Part shown: piece by piece, positions 1-10,757 of the stretch | How the letters are laid out: each line of letters opens with the position of its first letter | Numbering within the stretch: the first letter of the stretch is position 1 | NCBI GenBank assembly: GCA_038046625.1 | Contig: JBBSVV010000015.1 | Location: forward strand, 1-10,757 | Source of the DNA: an archaeon | Lineage (GTDB): Archaea > Iainarchaeota > Iainarchaeia > Iainarchaeales > Iainarchaeaceae | Reading direction: 5' to 3' | Length of the DNA stretch: 10,757 nucleotides | The notes under the pieces: model-generated | Database searches by the model: none | Seen by the model: the letters and a program-made list of their open reading frames with translations, nothing else | What the model was told of the DNA's origin: nothing | Translations under genes and position numbers: made by a program

Positions 1-475
1 GAGTGGTCGCGGGTGAGAGTTCACATCGACCCCGCGGTTTGCGACCTCGCCGTCGGCTCTTGGTATCCTGGCAGTGCATAAGCTGCCAAGGGTGCAGGTG
101 TTAACTGATTAAAACCGAACGTTAGTTGGGTTAAGAACGGTGCGAGCCAGTTTGGTTACTATCTATTGGAGTTGCCGAGTGTCTGAGGGGAAGGAGCACT
201 GAGTACGAGAGGAACGGTGCTTCGTGGCCACTGGTTAACCAGTTGTCCGACAGGGCAAACGCTGGGTAGCTACGCCATGGCTCATAAGAGCTGAAAGCAT
301 CTAAGCTCGAAGGAGCCCCTAAAAATAGACACTCACTCCGAAAACTTCGCACGTAAAAGTGCGGAGGCTATGGACGAGGGCTCCGGCAAAAGACCGGATT
401 GATAGGTTGGGGATGTAAGTTTCAAGCTTCGGCGAGAAATTAAGTTCACCAATACTAAAAGCCCGAGAGGGCTCA
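1..475 (+). rRNA. rrl: 23S rRNA, 3' part (domain V from ~E. coli 2454 through domain VI), archaeal, 5'-truncated by window
   Basis: Colinear with LSU rRNA landmarks: ACCTCGnnGTCGGCTC (44-59), CCAAGGGT (86-93), GGGTTnAGAACG (128-139), sarcin-ricin loop AGTACGAGAGGAAC (202-215), GCTGAAAGCATCTAAG, GATAGG, TACTAA near the end. The G2547.A2561 A-loop base is archaeal-like. 3' end approximate. Confidence 0.97.
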
Positions 476-498
476 TAAACCGGGTTTCATAGCACTTT

Positions 499-573
499 TT
501 TCTTTCTCCTGCGGAGAAAGAAACCTTGTACCCAAAGGGTACGAGGCCTCGTGGAATCTTTGATTCCACAAGG
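499..573. repeat. Three abutting inverted repeats, each with a 3-nt loop
   Basis: tttctttctcc-tgc-ggagaaagaaa (499-523), ccttgtaccc-aaa-gggtacgagg (524-546), cctcgtggaatc-ttt-gattccacaagg (547-573); no spacer between them. Confidence 0.9.
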
Positions 574-577
574 AACC

Positions 578-625
578 TGCACTAAAAAGAAAGAGTGCAA
601 AAAAAGTTTGCACTAAAAAGAAAGA
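578..625 (+). repeat. 17-bp direct repeat, period 31
   Basis: tgcactaaaaagaaaga at 578-594 and 609-625. Confidence 0.9.
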
Positions 626-686
626 ACGCAGGGAACAGTGCACCGAAAAAAAGCGAAAGCCTACCTTTCGGTCCAATGCACGACAA

Positions 687-724
687 CAACCTTTTTTCTC
701 TTCGAGAAAAAACGTTGACGAAAA
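687..724 (+). repeat. Hairpin element copy 1 (CAACC-[T-rich arm]-TTC-[A-rich arm]-CGTTGRCGAAAA)
   Basis: caacc ttttttctc ttc gagaaaaaa cgttgacgaaaa; same architecture at 2000-2047. Confidence 0.8.
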
Positions 725-823
725 CTATTGTTTCTTTTTTTCTTGAGTAAACTACAGAAACAAGAAATTATTTTTTCCTTGACGTCAGGCTGGCGAAAAT
801 TTTCGGCTTTTTAGAAATATGTT

Positions 824-1342
824 TCAGCTGTTCATTATTTGTTCAAGTTCCGCCACTTCGCTCTTGATTCTGCCGAGTATTGTTTCCAGTGCATCTATTT
901 CTCTTCTTTTGCGCTTGTCAAAATCTCTTGCGGCTTCAAGCCTGGCTGCATCAACTTCCCTAGCTACTATTTGTGAAAGATTGAATATCCTGTCATGTGC
1001 CTGCCTCACCCTTTCTGTTGCGAACCTTTGAATAGCCGGGTTACTGCTGTTTTTCATCACTCTCAGTTCAGAATTATTGAATTCTATGCCGCGCCCTGCC
1101 AACTCGGTTATTTCAGCCATTTGAACCTGTCCCTTTGCCAGCCTTGCATCGAAATGTTTCTTGGAGGCGCCGCCGAGGAATTTTCCATGCACAGCCCTTT
1201 TTGTCACGAGTTCCTCCATTTTTTGAAGGCGGGTTAATTGGTTCTCCTGCCTGAGTTGTGTAAACGGGCTTTGCGGCTTTCCCTTTGGCGGCGTTTTACT
1301 ATTAGTTCTTCTATTCTGCACGTGCTTGCTGTATCTTGGCAT
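824..1342 (-). CDS. Hypothetical basic protein (172 aa) with a predicted helical/coiled-coil C-terminus
   Basis: Long ORF. The internal ATG at 1342 (MPRYSK...) is preferred over 1492 because it has an SD-like GAAGTGAG and an AT-rich promoter upstream, and the longer start would overlap the opposite ORF. No family recognised. Confidence 0.75.
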   Translation of the reverse strand: MPRYSKHVQNRRTNSKTPPKGKPQSPFTQLRQENQLTRLQKMEELVTKRAVHGKFLGGASKKHFDARLAKGQVQMAEITELAGRGIEFNNSELRVMKNSSNPAIQRFATERVRQAHDRIFNLSQIVAREVDAARLEAARDFDKRKRREIDALETILGRIKSEVAELEQIMNS

Positions 1343-1363
1343 AAACTCACTTCTTAACTCTTC

Positions 1364-1403
1364 AAAACATTTATATTGCTGGGGGTTATTATATTTTTGG
1401 TGA
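1364..1403. promoter_or_regulatory. Overlapping divergent archaeal promoters plus SD
   Basis: + strand AAAACATTTATATT (1364-1377) and SD GGTGA (1399-1403) before TTG 1408. - strand AAAAATATAATAA (1398-1386) upstream of ATG 1342. Confidence 0.5.
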
Positions 1404-1407
1404 TAAG

Positions 1408-1590
1408 TTGAAACCACAAGCACTAAGACGAATAAACAGAGGAAGAGCCCCTCCCGGATCAATTCCCGGATGGAGAAAGGGAACATCAGCAACTGGCTTT
1501 AAAGTAGCTGCTCAATCTTCACGCACAACTCCCGGGCTTGCAAGGGCGCAGGCTAGGGCCAGGGCTAGAAGAGCCCAAAAAGGCCAATAG
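1408..1590 (+). CDS. Small very basic Arg/Ala-rich hypothetical protein (60 aa)
   Basis: TTG start 4 nt after GGTGA, TATA box at a suitable distance, fills the gap up to the rnpB promoter. 11 R + 4 K, no D/E. Confidence 0.6.
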   Translation: MKPQALRRINRGRAPPGSIPGWRKGTSATGFKVAAQSSRTTPGLARAQARARARRAQKGQ

Positions 1591-1604
1591 TTAACTTTTT
1601 AACC
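1591..1604 (+). promoter_or_regulatory. TATA box of RNase P RNA gene
   Basis: TTTTTAA at 1596-1602, about 25 nt before the P1 5' end at 1625. Confidence 0.6.
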
Positions 1605-1624
1605 TAATTTTCCGCAATATATAC

Positions 1625-2000
1625 GAGTAGCAGGTGATCGGCCATCGGTTCTCCGTGAACTGAGGAAAGTCCGCCCACCCGCAATAACACATACGCGGAG
1701 ACGCGGTCCAAAAGAACAGAAACGTAACAGTTTCGGCTGTTAGGTGCGACAACCCATGCTTCGCATGAGTTTTGCTCCGCAGTTGACTGATGAAACGCGC
1801 TTTTGGTTGGGTGCAACCCTCTCTGAGGGGCTAAGTCGAATGCCGGTGAGCGCCGTTCCTTCACAGGAACAAAACCCCTTGCTTTAATGGGTTTCAAGGC
1901 TCGCGCATGGAAGGCCTATCGAGGCACAAGCCGAAGATAGGGCGCCCTTCCGCCGCGGGCTTGCGGCGCGGAACAGAAGGCGGCTTACACCCTGCTGCTC
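1625..2000 (+). ncRNA. rnpB: Archaeal RNase P RNA
   Basis: P1 gagtagcagg (1625-1634)/cctgctgctc (1991-2000); CR-I GAGGAAAGTCCGCC from 1662; CR-V AACAGAAGGCGGCTTA (1972-1987) forming P4; ACAGAAA and TGAAAC S-domain motifs; P5 caccc/gggtg; P2 atcggc/gccggt. Confidence 0.96.
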
Positions 2001-2145
2001 AACCTTTTTCTTTCTTTTTTCAAAAGAAAGAAAAACGTTGGCGAAAAAGAAAGAAAAAGAAAAGCTGAACCAAAAGAAAAGAGCAAGAAAAAAGTTGAGC
2101 CAAAAGAAAAGAGCAAAAACTTTGGCGAAAAAGAAAGAAAAAAAG
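2000..2145 (+). repeat. Hairpin element copy 2 followed by A-B-B-A purine-rich repeats; T-tract may also terminate rnpB
   Basis: Perfect 14-bp stem 2005-2018/2022-2035 with TTC loop. ttggcgaaaaagaaagaaaaa at 2038-2058 and 2122-2142. 27-nt unit at 2060-2086 and 2090-2116 (2 mismatches). Confidence 0.88.
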
Positions 2146-2167
2146 CCACTGCCGATTCTCTAAGCCC

Positions 2168-2174
2168 TTTTAAA
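2168..2174 (+). promoter_or_regulatory. TATA box of alaS (probably leaderless mRNA)
   Basis: TTTTAAA ending 23 nt before ATG 2197; no SD. Confidence 0.6.
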
Positions 2175-2196
2175 CCCTTTATCCCTAATTTTTTCC

Positions 2197-4728
2197 ATGA
2201 AGGCGGACAAGGAAGTCAAGAAGGAGTTCAAGCTCAAGGCCTCGAAAGAGCCTGAGAAGAACTACCCTGTTGCCGCTTTGAAGAAGTACGGCTTTACTCG
2301 CCATCAGTGCTCGAAATGCCAGAAGTTTTTCTGGTCACAGGATTCTTCGTGGAAAGTCTGTGGTGATTCATCATGTTCCGGTGGCTACTCTTTCATCGGC
2401 AATCCGCCTTCCAAAAAAGGCTATGATTATTTGGGCACGTGGGAGGCGTTCCGTGATTATTTCAAAAAGAAAGGTTATTTCGAGTACAAGCGCTATCCTG
2501 TTGTTGCGCGCTGGAGGCCGGATGTTTATTGGGTTGGCGCTTCGGTATATCCTTTCCAGCCTTACGTTGTGAAAGGAGAAATAAAGCCGAAGAGCAACGC
2601 AGTGATAATTCCACAGCTTTCATTGCGCTTCAATGACATTGACAATGTCGGCATTACTGGTTCACATTACGTTTGCTTCGACATGCTGGGCCAGCTTCAT
2701 TTCGAGAAGAAGCAGGATTACGACCAGAACCTTTACTGGGATGAATACTTCAATTGGATTGTGAAGGGAATGGGGATTCCTGAAAAGGAAATTGTTGTGC
2801 ATGAGGATGCGTGGGCCGGCGGGGGAACGTTCGGGCCGTGCATGGAGTTTTTTTGCCGCGGAATGGAAATAGGGAACCAGGTTTACATGCAGTACGAGCA
2901 AACGGATTCTGGTTACAAAGAATTGGACATAAAAGTCCTTGACATGGGGCAAGGGCATGAAAGGGTTCCGTGGTTAACCACGGGAAAAAGCAATTCCTAC
3001 GAAACGACTTTTCCCAGCGTCGCGAAAAAGCTTTATTCCATCACGGGTTTCAAGCCTGATGAGAAACTGATGCAGAAGTTTTTGCCTCACTCTGCTTTGT
3101 TGAATGTGGACGAGGTTGAGGATATTGAAAAGGTTTGGCAGCAAATCGCAAAGAAACTATGCCTTGATGTCAAGGAACTCAAGGAAAAAATCCTTCCTCT
3201 TGCCGCGATTTACAGTGTCGGCGAGCATTCCCGCGCCGCGCTCGTTGCTTTGAATGATAATGCTTTGCCTTCGAATGTGGGTGGCGGGTACAATTTGCGA
3301 ATTATACTGAGGCGCGCTTTGGGTTTCATTGATGATTACGGCTGGAAAATTGACCTCGCTGATTTGGCTGAGGAGCATGCAAAGTTTTTGAAGCCGATGT
3401 ATCCTGAGCTTTCCGAGAAGCTTGATAATGTTGCAGTGATTTTGGAAAATGAGAAGAAAAAGTTTTTCGAGAACAAGGTGCGCTCGAGGCAGATTATTTC
3501 AACCGCGCTCGCCAAGAAAAGCACTGTTTCGGTTGATGACTTGGTTGAGATGTATGATTCGCATGGGATAAGGCCGGAGCAGTTCAGGAGCGAGGCAAAG
3601 GAAAAAGGGGTTAAGGTCGAGGTTCCTGATGATTTTTACGCGCGCGTTGCGGAGAGGCACGAGAAATCAGAGCATGCGGTTGCCACAAAGAAGGAAATGA
3701 AATTCGATTTGAAGGGCGTTCCTGAAACAAAAATAATGTATTATTTCGACTGGAAGCTGCTTGAGTTCGAGGCGAAAGTGGTTTGGAGCAAAGATACCTT
3801 CGTCGCGCTCGAGCAAACTGCATTCTATCCTACTTCTGGAGGGCAATTGCATGATATTGGGGCAATGAACAATGAAAAAGTTGTTGATGTGTTTAAGCAG
3901 GATTACGTGATTCTGCACAAACTTGAAAAAAATCCTTTTAAAGTGGGCGATAAAGTGAAGGGCAAAATCGATTTGGAAAGGAGAAAGCAACTGATGCAGC
4001 ACCACAGCTCCGCGCACCTCGTTAATTTATGTGCTTCGGAAGTTCTCGGCCCGCATGTCTGGCAGGCGGGCGCAGCGAAAACCCTTGAAAAGGGAAGGCT
4101 GGACATCACTCACTTTGATTCTCTCACGGAAAAGGAATTGAAGCAGATTGAGGATTGCTGCAACGAGAAAATAAAAAAGAATCTCAAGGTTGAAAAGGAA
4201 ATCCTTCCGCGCGAGCAGGCTGAGGACAAGTACGGAATGCATATCTATCAGGGCGGTTTTGTTCCGGGAAAAAACCTGCGCATCGTGAAAATCGGCGCTG
4301 ATGTCGAGGCCTGCGGCGGAACCCACGCGAACACCCTTGGCGAGCTCGGGGAATTGAAAATTATAGGTTCCACGAAGGTTCAGGATGGGGTTGTGAGGAT
4401 TAATTATACCGCGGGAAAGGCTGCGAAGCATGAGAAGGGGAATGTTGACGGGCTGATGAAAGAGGTTTCTGAAATTCTCGGCGTGAAGCCTAATCAAGTG
4501 CCCGACCGTGCCGAGGAATTGTTCTCGAAGTGGAAAATGGCGCGCAAAATGATTGCCAGGGGAAAGAGGGACGAAAGCCTTGAGCTTGTTTCAAAGGAAA
4601 CTGCGAGCGGCTCGAACGAGGAATTATTGAAAATGGCCGGCCAGACTTTCTCCACGCAGCCCGAGCACCTGCCCCGCACATTGAAAAGGTTTTTGAAGGA
4701 GCTTGAAGAACTGAAGAAAAGGCTTTGA
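2197..4728 (+). CDS. alaS: Alanyl-tRNA synthetase, archaeal type (843 aa)
   Basis: N-terminal CxxC...CGDxx[61 protein letters not shown], editing motifs HSSAH and CGGTH. Confidence 0.97.
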
Positions 4729-4739
4729 ACCAAGGCCAA

Positions 4740-4755
4740 AAAAACCATTTAAATT
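4740..4755 (+). promoter_or_regulatory. BRE/TATA of leuS (probably leaderless or very short leader)
   Basis: A-run followed by TTTAAAT (4748-4754), ending 24 nt before ATG 4778. Confidence 0.55.
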
Positions 4756-4777
4756 GTTTTATAGGGTGTTATTTGTC

Positions 4778-7468
4778 ATGCCTGCGAATTTGAACCAGAT
4801 TGCCAAGAAGTGGCAGAAGAAGTGGGATTTAACCAGGGCTTTCCGCGCAAAGGAAACCAAGGGCGGAAAGAAGTACTACGTCCTCGAAATGTTTCCCTAT
4901 CCATCCGGAAAGCTGCACATGGGCCACGTGAGGAATTACTCCATCGGCGACACCCTTGCGCGCTTCATGAGGATGCGCGGCTTTAATGTCCTTTACCCGA
5001 TAGGCTTTGACGCGTTCGGCCTGCCCGCGGAAAACGCCGCAATAGAAAACAAGGCGGATCCGCGCGAATGGACTTTGCAGCGCATAAAGGACATGACGCT
5101 GCAATTGAAGGAGCTTGGCTTCAGCTATGACTGGGAACGCACAATCGCGACGTGCTATCCGGAGTATTACAAGTGGAACCAGTGGTTTTTCCTCAAACTA
5201 TTTGAAAAAGGATTGGCTTACAAAAAAGCTGCGAAGGTAAATTGGTGCGGCAAGTGCAACACGGTTCTCGCGAACGAGCAGGTAATCAATGGAAAGTGCT
5301 GGCGCCACAAGGGCGAGGAAGTAACGGAAAAGGATTTGGAGCAGTGGTTCTTCAAAATCACTGATTATGCGGATGACCTGCTCAAAGGGCTTGAAGAGCT
5401 CGAGGGCTGGCCTGAGCGCGTGAAGACAATGCAGCGCAACTGGATTGGCAAGAGCCATGGTGCCGACATTTTTTTCAGGCTCGAGGGCTCGAACAAGGCC
5501 ATTGGGACTTACACTACGCGCTGTGACACGATTTACAGCGTGACTTTCCTCGCGATTGCGCCGGAGCATCCGATGCTTTCCGAATTGGTGAAGGGAACGG
5601 GCATGGAGGGACAGGTTCGGGAATTCATTGAGGAAACAAAGAAACAGAGCATAATCGACCGCGAGAATGAGGAGAAGGAAAAATCGGGGGTTTTTACGGG
5701 CAGGTACGCAATCAATCCTGTCAACAATGAAAAAGTGCCGATTTTTGCCGCAAACTTTGCGCTAATGTACGGTTCTGGCATAGTGATGTGCGATGCACAT
5801 GACAAGCGCGATTTCAGGTTTGCGCGGAAATATGATATTCCATTGAAGTTTGTAATAAGCGAAGACGGCAAGCCGATAAGCCCGGGTGATTGCAGTGATG
5901 CGTTCACGGATGACGGGGTTCTGTTCAATTCCGGGGAATTCAGCGGAATGAAGAACCGCGACGCGCTCCCGAAAATGGCTGATTGGCTTGAGAAGAAGGG
6001 CCTCGGCAAAAAAACAACCAATTACAAGCTGCGTGACTGGCTGATTTCCAGGCAAAGGTTCTGGGGAACCCCGATACCGATAATTTATTGTGCCGATTGC
6101 GGCTTGGTTCCTGTTCCTGAAAAGGATTTGCCTGTCGAGCTTCCAAACCCCAAGGAGGCGGATTTTGCTTTTGGCGGAAATCCTTTGCAGACCGTAAAGA
6201 AATTTGTCGAGGCCAAGTGCCCCAGGTGCGGCGCAAAAGCCAAGCGAGAAACGGACACAATGGACACTTTTGTTGATTCCTCGTGGTACTTCCTGCGGTA
6301 CACTTCCCCGAAAAGCACAAAGGCGCCCTTCGACAAGGAGAGCGTTTCTTACTGGCTGCCGGTTGACCAGTACATTGGGGGAATCGAGCATGCGATTCTG
6401 CATTTGATGTATGCACGCTTTTTCACGCGCGCTCTCAATGATTTAGGATTGGTTAAGTTCAAGGAGCCATTCACAAAGCTCTTGAGCCAGGGCATGGTTA
6501 TCAAGGACGGCGCGAAAATGTCAAAGTCTTTGGGAAACGTGGTAGAGCCCTCGGGAATAGTGAAAGAATTCGGCCCGGACACCATAAGGATTTTCATGCT
6601 CTTCACTTCGCACCCTGAAAAGGAGATTGACTGGAACGACCGAGGTGTCGAGGCTTCGCACAGGTTTCTGCAGAAAGTGCACATGCTTTTTGCCGAAAAT
6701 GCGAAAAAAGTTTCCTTCAAAAAAATTCCTTCAAGGCTCAATTTTTCCGGCCGCTTGGTTCTGGGCCTTGCGAACAAAACAATTGCGAGTGTCACGGAGC
6801 ACATAGAGAATTACAGGTTCAATTATGCGATTTCGGAAATAATGGATTTGGTTAACGCAGTCCAGAAGTACGGGTCTCCAAATCCCGAAGTTCTAGGGTT
6901 TTCCTTTTCGGTTATTGCGAGGCTGCTTGCCCCGTTCGCGCCGCATCTCGCGGAAGAATTGTGGAGCATGCTCGGCAACAAGAACCTTGTTGCTCTTGAA
7001 GAGTGGCCTGTTGCGGACAAGAAATTGATTGATGAAAAGGCGATTGCGGCTTCGCGCATGGCCGGCTCTATCCGCGAAGATGTTTTGAACATCCAGAAGC
7101 TAGCGGGCATTTCTGCGCCGAAAAAGGTTTCTGTTTTTGTTGCTCCGAAGTGGAAGTGGAAGGTGCTTTCCAAAATAGTTTCTTCCATGGACAAGCCTGA
7201 TTTCGGCGCGGCAATGAAAATTGCTTCTTCTCTTCCTGAGGCAAAGCCGTTTTCCAAGGAGCTTCCGGGGTTTGTGAAGGCTGTTGTGCAGAAGTTCCAT
7301 GAGCTGAAGGAAGTGAAGGAAATTGACGAGTTTGCTTTGCTCTCGGATTCGAAAAATTATATTTCTGGCATCATTGGCGCCGAGGTTTCCGTTATCGATG
7401 CGGAAAAATCAGCCGAGGAAAAGGCAAAGAAGGCCTTTCCTTTGAAGCCGGCTATTCTTGTTGAGTGA
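4778..7468 (+). CDS. leuS: Leucyl-tRNA synthetase (896 aa), bacterial-type core with archaeal-type C-terminal domain
   Basis: [13 protein letters not shown] (HIGH), [60 protein letters not shown]; ends [18 protein letters not shown] 4778 preferred to TTG 4754, which overlaps the TATA box. Confidence 0.97.
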
Positions 7469-7476
7469 ACTGCTTT

Positions 7477-9168
7477 TCAGTAGTCTACCGTGACGTTCAG
7501 CGTGTCGCGAAGTTCCCTGAGTTCCTTTACAGCTTTCTGGAAATTCTGGCCGTTCCGGTTCCTCAAAATTATTTCGTTGGTGCAGGTGGTTCTGTCGCCG
7601 TACATTCTCGCGTTCATTGATTCCAGGTCGAGGCCGTTTTTCGCGATTATGGCGAGCTGCCTGGACAGGATTCCGGGCCTGTCAACGGAATCCACCCTTA
7701 GCCTTATTCCTGCTTTTGCGGATTTTTTGACGGGCTTGTGTTTCCTGAGTTCCTTTTCAACTAGCCCCTTGGTTTTGCTTGCGTTCGCAAAGAAAAGCCA
7801 GTCAGAATCCAGCTGTGTTGAGTTGCTGTAAAATATTTTTACGCGGTCCCCCGAACTGATTTTTTTCCACAGCGGAACGATTTTTTCGTTGACCTTTGCC
7901 TTTGAGGCGCGTTTCGCGTTTTTTTCGTCGTAAAAGAATGCGAAGTCAAGCACTGTAGAGTCATGCGGCAGGTCAACTATGCCCCCCTCGGGGGTAAATG
8001 CCAGGATGGCGCGGTGGTGAAGCCCCAGGTTAAGGGAGTCGCTCAACTGTTTCGGGTTCCTGATTTCCGGTTCCTTGAGGCTCGAGAACATTTTCGAGTA
8101 TTTGTCCAGGAGCTCTTTTTTCTCCGGCTTCCCGTTCCTCATCAATGCCATTACCCCGTCATCGGCGACTTCATCCATTTCTGCCGAGAAGAAATAGATT
8201 TTGAGCGGTTTTTTTGACGGCCCGAGCACCTGTGTGTGCAGTGACTCGTAAATCCCGTGCTCCGGAATCGCGATGTAGTCCTTCACTTTTCCGGGAATCG
8301 GCTTGAAGAGCGAATGCACCTTTCCCATTGCTGAGTAGCATTCCTCCTTTTTTTCCACGATTATTTTGAGTATGAGCTCGTCGTGGATTTCTTCAAGAGA
8401 CCTGTTTTCAACCTTGATTTTGCTGTAAATCAGGTATGCTGATTTTGCCTTTGTTTCGAACCTCCATTTTTCCCCCGGGAAGGACTTTTTGAGGAGCGCC
8501 ACGGTTTTTTTGATGTCGCGGCTTGTCGCTTTAACTTTTATTCCTATTTTTCTGCATAGTTCCCTGTACTTTTTTGGCTCGAGAGCTTCAAAGCAGAGGT
8601 CCTCCATTTCGTACTTGAGTCCATGTATGCCGAGCTTGTGCGCAAGCGGCACGTAAACGCTCAGCGCGTCGATTGCTATGCGCTTCTGCTTTTCCTTAGG
8701 CAAAAACCTTAATGTGCGCATGTTGTGGAGCTTGTCATAGAGCTTTATGAGCAGGACCCTGGTGTCCTTGGATGCTGCGATAATAGTTTTGAGCGCGTTT
8801 GCCGTGGATTGTTCCTGCCTTGATTTGAACCTCATCATGTCCAGCTTTGTGACTCCGCTGACTAAACCTGTAACCTGCTTCCCGAAGATTTTTTGCATTC
8901 TTGCTTCGGTTACATTGCTGTCCTCAAGCACGTCGTGCAGAAGCGCGGCTGAAATGACGACTTCATCCATTCCTTTTTCCGCGAGGCTTTTTGCGACCGC
9001 AACTGGGTGCGAGAAGTAGGGGTCGCCGGATTTCCTGAACTGGTTTTCGTGGCACTTTTCGGAGAAGCGGAATGCCTCTTCAATCATGTCGAGGTTTGCA
9101 TTTGGGTGGTATTTTCTCGCGAGGCGCCTTATTTCGGCGAGGTCCCGCGTGAAGCCTTCTGAATGCAT
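7477..9168 (-). CDS. Long RelA/SpoT homolog: HD hydrolase + degenerate synthetase + TGS + ACT (563 aa)
   Basis: HENQFRKSGDPYFSHP, AALLHDVLED, KLYDKLHNMRTL, YVPLAHKLGI, KDYIAIP...YESLHT, TGS FTPEG..LP..STVLDFA...AKVN, ACT DRPGIL. TATA-like ATTAAATT at 9198-9191. Confidence 0.93.
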   Translation of the reverse strand: MHSEGFTRDLAEIRRLARKYHPNANLDMIEEAFRFSEKCHENQFRKSGDPYFSHPVAVAKSLAEKGMDEVVISAALLHDVLEDSNVTEARMQKIFGKQVTGLVSGVTKLDMMRFKSRQEQSTANALKTIIAASKDTRVLLIKLYDKLHNMRTLRFLPKEKQKRIAIDALSVYVPLAHKLGIHGLKYEMEDLCFEALEPKKYRELCRKIGIKVKATSRDIKKTVALLKKSFPGEKWRFETKAKSAYLIYSKIKVENRSLEEIHDELILKIIVEKKEECYSAMGKVHSLFKPIPGKVKDYIAIPEHGIYESLHTQVLGPSKKPLKIYFFSAEMDEVADDGVMALMRNGKPEKKELLDKYSKMFSSLKEPEIRNPKQLSDSLNLGLHHRAILAFTPEGGIVDLPHDSTVLDFAFFYDEKNAKRASKAKVNEKIVPLWKKISSGDRVKIFYSNSTQLDSDWLFFANASKTKGLVEKELRKHKPVKKSAKAGIRLRVDSVDRPGILSRQLAIIAKNGLDLESMNARMYGDRTTCTNEIILRNRNGQNFQKAVKELRELRDTLNVTVDY

Positions 9169-9203
9169 TACAATAGTGTGTTTGGAAACTAATTTAATCT
9201 GCT

Positions 9204-10757
9204 CTACATTTCCTGTGTGGCCTGTATATTGAGCAGTTCCATGCCCTTCCTTATGGTTTCCGCAGCAACCTTCACCAGCAGCAGCCTTGATTCACGCCCG
9301 CCTTTTCCCGCTTTAAGCACCGGAACCTCATGGTAAAAGGAGTTGAATGTTGACGCAAGCTCAAGGAGATAGTGCGCTATTTTGTGCGGGCTCATCTGTG
9401 CTTCGGCCTCTGCGGCCTTTTCGGAGTACTTTGAAATAACCGAAAGCAGTTCCTTTTCCTTTTCCTCTTTGAATTCAGGTTTTTTCGGCGCAGCGAATTT
9501 TCCCGCTTTTTTGAGTATGCTTTGCGCCCTTGCATAGCTGTACATCACGAACGGGCCTGTTTCGCCTTCGATGCTTGTCGCCTTGTCCCAATTGAATATT
9601 ATTGTCTTGTTTTTGTCCTGTGAAAGCATGCCAAACTTTATTGCCGCCAATGCAATTGCCTTTGCGGTTTCTGCAACCTTTTTTTGGCTCCAGTCTTCAT
9701 GCCTTTGCCTTGTTTCGGCAAGTGTTTTTTGGAACACTTTTTCGAAGAGCTCGATGTATGTGATTACATTGCCTTCGCGCGAGGCCATTTTCCCTTCCTC
9801 GAGCATCACCAATTCATAAGGGACATGGATTGTTTCGCAGTACTCGCTCTTCCTTTGGTTCAGCAGCTCGAGTGTTTTTATCAGCTGCTGGAAATAGAAT
9901 TTCTGTTCAGAGCCAACCACGTTGTATGAGAGTTCCGCCTTGAGCTTCTGCTTCTTCATTTTTGCGAGCGCAATGTCCTTGCTTGAGTAAAGGGCCGCGC
10001 CGTCGCTTTTCAGCACAAGGAATTTGTCGAGGTTGTATTTCGTGAGGTCAACGAGCAGCGCCCCGTCGTCTTTGACTGCGATGCCTTCCATGTAAAGCCG
10101 GTTCACGATTTTTATTCCTTCTTTTTCAACTTCGCTTTCCAGGATTATGCGGTCGAACTTTATTCCAAGCTCTTTGTAAATGTAATCGAAATACGTGAGG
10201 CTCATTTTCCTGAGTTTTTTCCAGTCCGAAACGAGTTTCTTGTCTCCCTTTTCTAGCTGCACAACCATTTCGCGCATCTTTTCCTCCAACTCGGGGTTGC
10301 CCTTTACTTCCTTTGCCCCCATTGCGTAGAGCTTTCCCAGCCACTTGCCCTGCTCCGCAATGCTTTTCGGCTCCGCGCCTTTCCAGAGGTTCCGGTATGC
10401 GTAAAGCGATTTGCTCGCGTGCGGCCCCACGTCTCCGCAATAATCAACCCTCAGGACTTTTTTGCCCTGCGCCTCAAGGAGCCTTGCAATGGATTCGCCG
10501 AGGCAAATGTTCCTCACGTGCCCGATGTGGAAATCCTTCAAAGGATTTGCCTGGCAATATTCAACGATTATTTTTTTGCCCTTCACGGATTTTTTTCCGG
10601 CTTTGGTTTCGCTAAGGGCTGTCTGCGCGAGCGCGTTTTCTTCGACAAAAAAATTTATGTAAGGGCCCCTAAGTTCGCTTCTCGAGAATGATTTCGGGAG
10701 TTTCAGTTTCGAATTTATTTCCGCCGCAATATCTGCGGGGCTTTTCCTGAATTCCTT
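9204..10757 (-). CDS. argS: Arginyl-tRNA synthetase, 5'-truncated by window
   Basis: FHIGHVRN (HIGH), KSDGAALYSSKD, YNVVGSEQ..YF, KMASREG, GETGPFVMYSYARAQSIL, FNSFYH, terminal Met. The frame stays open upstream of 10586 to the window edge and reads KEFRKSPADIAAEI...GPYINFF, typical of the ArgRS N-domain. Confidence 0.96.
   Translation of the reverse strand, partial: KEFRKSPADIAAEINSKLKLPKSFSRSELRGPYINFFVEENALAQTALSETKAGKKSVKGKKIIVEYCQANPLKDFHIGHVRNICLGESIARLLEAQGKKVLRVDYCGDVGPHASKSLYAYRNLWKGAEPKSIAEQGKWLGKLYAMGAKEVKGNPELEEKMREMVVQLEKGDKKLVSDWKKLRKMSLTYFDYIYKELGIKFDRIILESEVEKEGIKIVNRLYMEGIAVKDDGALLVDLTKYNLDKFLVLKSDGAALYSSKDIALAKMKKQKLKAELSYNVVGSEQKFYFQQLIKTLELLNQRKSEYCETIHVPYELVMLEEGKMASREGNVITYIELFEKVFQKTLAETRQRHEDWSQKKVAETAKAIALAAIKFGMLSQDKNKTIIFNWDKATSIEGETGPFVMYSYARAQSILKKAGKFAAPKKPEFKEEKEKELLSVISKYSEKAAEAEAQMSPHKIAHYLLELASTFNSFYHEVPVLKAGKGGRESRLLLVKVAAETIRKGMELLNIQATQEM

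Follow-up and report, generated by a model that had tools for sequence, protein, structure and literature searches.

The closest described relatives of the system treated here are long RelA/SpoT homologs (RSHs), which include the bifunctional Rel[HS] proteins of Bacillus subtilis, Staphylococcus aureus, and Mycobacterium tuberculosis, the RelA[hS]/SpoT pair of Escherichia coli, and the SpoT[Hs] protein of Acinetobacter baumannii. The last of these has been shown experimentally to be a hydrolase-only long RSH with a dead synthetase domain that plays a regulatory role, and experiments likewise attribute to its pseudo-synthetase, TGS, and ACT domains a role in supporting or tuning the hydrolase (PMC9974481). 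This article describes a compact long RSH, P0001, encoded in a 10,757-nt stretch of archaeal DNA from the phylum Iainarchaeota (assembly GCA_038046625.1, contig JBBSVV010000015.1, positions 1 to 10,757 of the forward strand; hereafter the window). P0001 has kept its hydrolase residues and lost most of its synthetase residues, and its genome encodes a second long RSH, P0005, that shows the opposite pattern of loss; together they probably form a pair in which one enzyme makes and the other degrades (p)ppGpp.

In a survey published in 2011, archaea were described as being without long RSHs (PMC3153485). RelA/SpoT genes were reported a decade later in 69.0% of Diapherotrites, 41.7% of Woesearchaeota, 21.3% of Pacearchaeota, and 19.0% of Nanoarchaeota genomes and were attributed to transfer from Bacteria (PMC8407392). 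The presence of RSH genes in Diapherotrites is thus already published, and a hydrolase-only SpoT is already known from the Moraxellaceae. No description of a hydrolase-only and synthetase-only pair in archaea was found in the literature consulted, although figure S34 of PMC8407392 or the supplements of that paper may already show both clades.

Residue columns were taken from an alignment of P0001 with 14 bacterial Rels, seven compact bifunctional-looking proteins (group C), and 89 relatives. Nine residues make up the hydrolase set (R45, S47, H54, H78, D79, E82, D83, D145, and N149) and ten the synthetase set (R-x-K, D, R, K-x-N-x-Y, H, and E-x-Q-x-R, with N305 and the HWxYK motif standing outside the ten). 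All nine hydrolase residues are present in P0001, which reads RKSGDPY from residue 45, carries H78-D79 inside LLHDVLED, and continues with D145-K-L-H-N149, so that the HD hydrolase motifs are complete, as the initial annotation had stated. Four of the ten synthetase residues remain (K242, D263, Y307, and H311, the last within a retained S-L-H-T), and the other six have been replaced (R240 by Lys, R268 by Lys, K303 by Glu, E323 by Lys, Q325 by Tyr, and R327 by Phe). N305 has also become Gly, and HWxYK reads L-M-R-N-G. K323, Y325, F327, and S328 align with the E-x-Q-x-R-T motif in 14 of 14 bacterial Rels, and the earlier assignment of K323-I-Y-F-F-S at nt 8202-8185 as the replacement of this motif is exact in both residues and nucleotide positions. 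The alignment also agrees that the Arg of GRxK, the KxNGY loop, and AAHWxYK are lost, although the Lys of GRxK (K242) and Y307 are retained. A bifunctional Rel[HS] requires the complete synthetase set, which P0001 lacks; an intact hydrolase with a lost synthetase, as found here (9/9 and 4/10), is the residue pattern of a monofunctional [Hs] long RSH, a functional class that is defined also by measured (p)ppGpp hydrolysis and the absence of synthesis.

The same pattern extends across relatives. A search of 151 genomes of the same phylum, including that of the window, with a threshold of E <= 1e-20, returned an RSH match in 103, of which 61 have two or more and 42 have one; within the window's own family, a match is present in each of the 19 other genomes, 18 of which have at least two. 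Ninety of roughly 166 matches were fetched and classified into an A-type (n = 44, including P0001 and excluding the partial contig-end copy L029) and a B-type (n = 46, including P0005). The complete hydrolase set is present in 42 of the 44 A-type proteins and in none of the 46 B-type proteins (range 0 to 6 residues). The complete synthetase set is absent from every A-type protein (range 2 to 6) and present in 41 of 46 B-type proteins. Wherever two copies were fetched from one genome (28/28), one was A-type and the other B-type. Column 323 is Lys in 40/44 A-type proteins and Glu in all B-type (46/46), bacterial (14/14), and group C (7/7) proteins; column 325 is Tyr in 34/44 A-type proteins. With these substitutions fixed in relatives, and with homologs of P0001 numbering in the thousands in a protein search, the pattern lies far beyond chance.

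Domain conservation differs between the two types in a corresponding manner. Mean pairwise identity among A-type proteins is 0.49 in the HD domain, 0.43 in the synthetase-type domain, and 0.41 in TGS; the B-type values are 0.27, 0.50, and 0.54, respectively. By these identities, the A-type pseudo-synthetase is still constrained and the B-type pseudo-hydrolase is decaying. Comparison of P0001 with a 97%-identical ortholog from the same genus gives a ratio of non-synonymous to synonymous substitution rates (dN/dS) of 0.17 (28.5 synonymous and 18.5 non-synonymous differences, per-domain counts being too small to interpret), and by this measure P0001 is under purifying selection.

The initial annotation had proposed that the genome be searched for an intact synthetase, and such a search recovers P0005, a protein of 634 aa on a separate contig (C41) that has all ten synthetase residues, the guanine-stacking Tyr and the K-x-N-x-Y loop among them, and three of the nine hydrolase residues, its HD motif reading H-N and its R-K-S-G motif being gone. 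The corresponding region of C41 scores 135-138 bits with PF04607 (137.9 in the whole-genome search), and the protein matches RelA_SpoT, HD_4, TGS, and ACT_4, with a weak AH/RIS match in addition; it also retains the TGS His and has a zinc-finger region rich in Cys. Its E-F-D-D motif, against K-V-K-D in P0001, resembles the RelA-type charge reversal. Neither PF04607 nor HD_4 matches elsewhere in this genome beyond P0001 and P0005. The P0005 gene lies between CorA upstream and a KaiC-type ATPase downstream, with AsxRS, SerRS, and TFE-alpha within 10 kb and a short TIM gene also on the contig; TFE-alpha, the KaiC-type ATPase, and the short TIM are presumably archaeal markers. C41 further carries an open reading frame (ORF) for a LAGLIDADG-type endonuclease (L003:11979-12851, minus strand), and a 140-aa ORF adjoining the B-type gene (L003:6858-7280) draws no Pfam match with E values allowed up to 1. 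A search of this genome for Ppx/GppA (PF02541) returned nothing, a result that does not show the family to be absent.

P0001 has the HD domain, the synthetase fold following it, and the TGS domain of a long RSH and lacks the helical/zinc-finger element of that definition (Table 1). The HD_4 search of the genome recovered its HD domain at the same location as the protein scan, and PF19296 (AH/RIS) had no match in the Pfam scan of the protein. Its linker between TGS and ACT spans about 38 residues with no Cys and, judged by its sequence, P0001 is without a helical or zinc-finger domain at this position. The A-type linker has a median of 38 aa (range 28-43) and no Cys; medians are 106 aa with three Cys in B-type proteins, 118 aa with three Cys in group C, whose members are about 640 aa long with hydrolase and synthetase sites both intact, and 197.5 aa with three Cys in bacterial Rels. 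The TGS His column is His in all 46 B-type, 14 bacterial, and seven group C proteins and in only two of 44 A-type proteins, 18 of which have Asp and nine Asn. In B. subtilis Rel, the His in question, H420, corresponds to H432 of RelA and makes a stacking contact with the CCA end of uncharged tRNA, and the H420E substitution abolishes both activation by deacylated tRNA and the inhibition of hydrolysis by tRNA (PMC7797070). From the loss of the helical and zinc-finger domains and of the TGS His, P0001 is expected to be ribosome-independent and insensitive to tRNA.

The C-terminal ACT region of P0001 matches ACT_4 weakly (19.8 bits, under the cut-off of 27), and the AlphaFold2 (AF2) model places a beta-alpha-beta-beta-alpha-beta arrangement at residues 488-562 with pLDDT of about 90. 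In some Rels, branched-chain amino acids are ligands of the ACT domain. The region is missing in five of the 44 A-type relatives (L026, L027, L034, L072, and L073), which stop after TGS at about 480-490 aa, and in L026, L027, and L034 the match crosses a single in-frame TGA or TAA at the end of TGS. The A-type ACT domain may accordingly be dispensable or separately encoded in loci that end after TGS.

The AF2 model of P0001, built from a 59-sequence alignment, has a mean pLDDT of 88.9 and a pTM of 0.77. In Foldseek comparisons with the PDB, its catalytic half superposes on S. aureus Rel with bound pppGpp (7oiw) with a template-modeling (TM) score of 0.93 and a root-mean-square deviation of 1.8 A, and its best whole-chain match is B. 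subtilis Rel (6yxa). Solved Rel/RelA proteins are found as sequence homologs by HMMER with E as low as 6.5e-97, the Rel catalytic domains falling between 1e-80 and 1e-97; matches to Mesh1 or ppApp hydrolase range from 1e-12 to 4e-6. Sequence, conservation, and fold thus agree with the original description of P0001 as an archaeal long RSH that combines an intact hydrolase with a pseudo-synthetase, and on the same three grounds the protein is probably hydrolase-only, as had been proposed.

Bifunctional Rel[HS] proteins (B. subtilis 6yxa, S. aureus 7oiw, and M. tuberculosis 5xnx) are the best matches overall, with E 2.6e-95 for 6yxa. They share with P0001 the HD-SYNTH-TGS-...-ACT order and identical hydrolase residues but differ from it in the synthetase set, in the TGS His (Asp at the position equivalent to H420), and in the helical and zinc-finger domains, which P0001 has lost. 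P0001 also resembles A. baumannii SpoT[Hs] (7qpr), which likewise combines an intact hydrolase with a retained dead synthetase and exists alongside a separate synthetase-only RelA (PMC9974481), and the analogy with the Moraxellaceae SpoT drawn in the initial annotation is apt in the light of that paper. The two match in sequence (E 7.5e-44), and the insensitivity of A. baumannii SpoT to ribosomes (PMC9974481) is predicted for P0001 as well. They nevertheless differ in the residues lost, the Asp and Gln of the synthetase having been replaced in A. baumannii SpoT (PMC9974481) and the Glu and Gln in P0001 (K323 and Y325), which keeps the Asp (D263). A. baumannii SpoT, at about 700 aa, has helical and zinc-finger domains, whereas P0001 has 563 aa and only its short linker, and the whole-chain match between the full-length structure (7qpr) and the P0001 model is poor, with a TM score of about 0.5.

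The E. coli RelA[hS]/SpoT pair resembles P0005/P0001 in that a hydrolase-dead synthetase with its ribosome and tRNA sensing parts retained is accompanied by a hydrolase paralog, with reciprocal decay of the domains. The archaeal pair is not orthologous to E. coli RelA/SpoT, however, since the sampled bacterial clade includes neither of the archaeal clades; both archaeal proteins are also shortened, and E. coli SpoT keeps weak synthetase activity (PMC9974481), unlike what is predicted for P0001. Small alarmone hydrolases and Mesh1 (3nr1, 5vxa, and 7qod) share the HD fold and catalytic motifs with P0001 (E 1e-12 to 1e-15) but are single-domain proteins of about 180 aa, whereas P0001 is a four-domain long RSH.

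The alignment and phylogeny against Rel, SpoT, and RelA that had been suggested as a check upheld the synthetase losses and placed the A-type proteins in a clade of their own. Two quick IQ-TREE trees were computed (LG+G4), with SH-aLRT support only and with long-branched rows and uneven composition, for which the supports are to be read cautiously. In the first (99 rows), the A-type clade has a support of 100, the B-type clade 96, and the 20 bacterial rows 100. The second has 98 rows, of which 50 are bacterial from at least 10 named phyla, six of them Pseudomonadota loci; the bacterial sample came from a locus search with the A-type alignment and generic hydrolase patterns, which returned at least 79 bacterial Rel loci and at least one 'Candidatus Iainarchaeum' locus. 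Here the A-type clade, now including the Candidatus Iainarchaeum locus, again has a support of 100 and the B-type clade 97, and the bacterial rows fall on one side of a branch with an SH-aLRT of 95. The compact A-type, B-type, and group C proteins stand apart from the ordinary bacterial Rels sampled. P0001 does not branch within proteobacterial SpoT in this quick tree, and A. baumannii SpoT and P0001 are of independent origin.

P0001 is probably a monofunctional long-RSH (p)ppGpp hydrolase whose substrate would be the alarmone made by P0005 in the same cell. We infer both enzymatic activities, the substrate, and the regulation of the two proteins from sequence, conservation, fold, co-occurrence, and synteny. 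As envisaged, the Mn2+-type HD site would remove the 3'-diphosphate of (p)ppGpp, the pseudo-synthetase would be kept only as a conserved scaffold or regulatory domain, and P0001 would act away from the ribosome without being inhibited by deacylated tRNA; its remaining TGS and ACT domains may continue to modulate hydrolysis. P0005, RelA-like [hS], would make the (p)ppGpp that P0001 breaks down, the two forming a make-and-break pair analogous to RelA/SpoT. The initial annotation had looked for the substrate elsewhere, in a host- or environment-derived alarmone, NADPH, or an undescribed archaeal alarmone; with an intact synthetase encoded by the same genome, endogenous (p)ppGpp is the simplest substrate, and an imported alarmone need not be invoked.

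An active HD domain in P0001 directed at another substrate, whether (p)ppApp, NADPH or 3'-phosphoadenosine-5'-phosphosulfate (PAPS) in the manner of Mesh1, or an alarmone of a host or neighbor, is unlikely, though it is the most serious of the alternatives. The HD family does accept other substrates, and solved structures of Mesh1 with NADPH and with PAPS, as well as a (p)ppApp hydrolase, are among the matches of P0001; DPANN archaea are often episymbionts; and genomes with the B-type alone exist, so that the A and B genes are not strictly coupled. Set against this are the complete synthetase set of P0005 in the same genome, the co-occurrence of both types in every genome from which both copies were fetched, and the far greater closeness of P0001 to Rel catalytic domains than to Mesh1 or ppApp hydrolase.

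It is improbable that both halves of P0001 are catalytically dead and that the protein serves as a regulator by binding nucleotides or other proteins, although it retains ACT and TGS domains and falls under the cut-off of the spoT_relA profile. In 42 of 44 relatives, some of them only about 33% identical, none of the examined metal-binding or catalytic residues of the hydrolase has been lost, and HD is the best conserved of the A-type domains, which would be hard to explain without catalysis. Equally slight is the chance that P0001 is still bifunctional, with a K323/Y325 site performing pyrophosphate transfer by an altered chemistry or onto a different acceptor. K323 and Y325 are themselves conserved, as are D263, K242, Y307, and S-L-H-T, in a domain that averages 43% identity among A-type proteins. 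The acidic Glu has, however, become Lys; R240, R268, K303, N305, R327, and HWxYK are unconserved within the A-type; and A. baumannii SpoT, with comparable losses, is synthetase-inactive in vivo (PMC9974481).

Several observations weigh against assigning P0001 the role of a (p)ppGpp hydrolase paired with P0005. According to a 2021 paper, (p)ppGpp had not been detected in any archaeon (PMC8646023), the two species assayed there belonging to other phyla. With RelA/SpoT genes already reported in Diapherotrites (PMC8407392), the premise of novelty in the initial annotation is also weaker than it assumed. The residues that the pseudo-synthetase retains (D263, K242, Y307, and S-L-H-T) could allow it some nucleotide binding. 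P0001 scores 452.1 bits with TIGR00691 (spoT_relA), under the cut-off of 499.2, over profile positions 1-453 of 687. Forty-eight of the 151 sampled genomes have no RSH match, and all 18 single-match genomes that were fetched carry the B-type only. Four of the latter (G001, G002, G016, and G061, with loci L076, L077, L084, and L080) are between 92 and 99% complete (values of 99, 97, 93, and 92%, not in the order of the names) and have no HD_4 match besides the dead domain inside the B-type protein. Such genomes indicate that the A-type partner is not obligatory for a B-type synthetase and that a synthetase without an RSH-type hydrolase is tolerated in related families. The grouping of the A- and B-types in the second tree, finally, has a support of only 56, with which a duplication inside archaea would be compatible.

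A broader scenario, which we advance tentatively and to which we give slightly less than even chances, is that Iainarchaeota run a two-enzyme (p)ppGpp cycle independent of the proteobacterial RelA/SpoT split, in which a bacterial Rel was acquired once and gave rise both to a synthetase-only enzyme that senses ribosomes and tRNA and to a ribosome-independent hydrolase-only enzyme, the latter losing its sensing arm and becoming fixed downstream of argS. If true, it would give Archaea a first stringent-type alarmone system and RelA/SpoT-style subfunctionalization a second, independent case, with different residues and domains lost, and the linkage to argS would couple breakdown of the alarmone to how the tRNA-charging machinery is expressed. 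A second case helps to sort which parts of a long RSH serve which activity. The conserved, reciprocally decayed pair of maker and breaker is strong genomic evidence that some archaea use (p)ppGpp, and both P0001 and P0005 are open to experiments in E. coli and in vitro that do not require their uncultured host to be grown.

Table 1. Features of the window and of the contig encoding P0005. Positions are those of the window unless a contig is named.
Feature	Position	Strand	Basis or remark
P0001 gene, probable compact hydrolase-only long RSH (A-type, [Hs])	7477..9168	-	ATG start, open ORF, 563 aa
HD (hydrolase) domain, residues 32-181	8626..9075	-	HD_4, E 1.4e-38, 132.5 bits against a cut-off of 27.2
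Pseudo-synthetase domain, residues 241-343	8140..8448	-	PF04607 (RelA_SpoT), 71.6 bits against a cut-off of 27
K323-I-Y-F-F-S in place of catalytic E-x-Q-x-R-T, residues 323-328	8185..8202	-	Column alignment
TGS domain, residues 391-446	7831..7998	-	PF02824, 37.1 bits against a cut-off of 22.2
D414 at the TGS His position (the His of Rel/RelA that reads the tRNA CCA end)	7927-7929	-	Aligned opposite residue 420 of 6yxa
C-terminal ACT/RRM-like domain, residues 489-559	7492..7704	-	ACT_4 match and AF2 secondary structure
argS (arginyl-tRNA synthetase), 5' end beyond the window	9204..10757	-	TIGR00456, 403.7 bits
argS-RSH spacer	9169..9203	-	35 nt, to the RSH start codon
Leucyl-tRNA synthetase (LeuRS), bacterial-type	4754-7468	+	TIGR00396, 984 bits; converges on the RSH 3' end, 8 nt apart
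P0005, probable synthetase-only long RSH (B-type, [hS])	G000 contig C41:4934-6838 (= L003:4934-6838)	+	634 aa; PF04607 genome search
Archaeal large-subunit (23S) rRNA, 3' end	1-478	+	410 bits
Archaeal RNase P RNA	1626-1999	+	93.9 bits

The arrangement of P0001 behind argS recurs among its relatives. Of the 44 A-type loci from other genomes, 37 have an arginyl-tRNA synthetase (ArgRS), and in 33 its gene is the immediate upstream neighbor in the same orientation, separated from the RSH gene by a median of approximately 82 nt; the order is held even where ArgRS identity falls to 33-38%; argS is a conserved neighbor of the RSH gene and possibly its operon partner. The spacer between the two genes contains an A/T-rich ATTAAATTA box about 27 nt before the RSH ATG, and this ATTAAATTA box may be the archaeal TATA box of a leaderless transcript. 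A bacterial-type LeuRS (at least 42% identity) is the convergent neighbor in 16/44 A-type loci. In L015 and L020, of the same family but another genus, the convergent neighbor at the LeuRS position is only 28% identical over the C-terminal part and may represent another class I synthetase type.

The contig is archaeal. Beyond the archaeal rRNA end and RNase P RNA (Table 1), the window encodes an archaeal-type alanyl-tRNA synthetase (AlaRS; TIGR03683, 823 bits against a cut-off of 745), and close homologs are labeled Candidatus Diapherotrites archaeon or archaeon. Archaeal small-subunit rRNA (RF01959) was not found in the genome, so that its placement rests on the other markers; the assembly (G000) comprises 986 kb in 57 contigs and is 84.6% complete, with contamination of 0.21%. 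Separately assembled contigs from four public groundwater runs of two studies, two of which may be the source of the assembly itself, span 2192-10025, 2931-10025, 4405-9752, and 6705-9983, with further pieces covering 569-2802 and 569-2221, and these bridging contigs physically link the RNase P RNA, AlaRS, LeuRS, the RSH gene, and ArgRS. A bacterial or chimeric contig, which the initial annotation had named as grounds for rejecting its reading, is not what was found: RSH genes are typically bacterial and the adjoining LeuRS is of bacterial type, but contamination is scarcely credible given the archaeal markers on the same contig, the single contigs of four runs that span AlaRS-LeuRS-RSH-ArgRS, the recurrence of the argS-RSH order in related archaeal loci, and the low estimated contamination.

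The contigs of the four runs also show minor differences from the window. One base is absent at window position 8209, just upstream of the K323 codon, in the RSH gene of the contig from the smallest run (X5); the three other runs match the window, and the X5 gap may be an assembly error or a rare variant. At the other end, the approximately 1.1 kb between the rRNA end and the RNase P RNA (479-1625) has no RNA-family match, and the ORFs at 824-1492 (minus strand, 222 aa) and 995-1237 stay without a Pfam match when the E-value limit is relaxed to 1. A 97-aa ORF at 1604-1897 on the minus strand lies across part of the RNase P RNA and is probably not a real gene. Within or near this part of the window, the contigs of the four runs break or branch at positions 491, 574, 604, 1726, and 1766.

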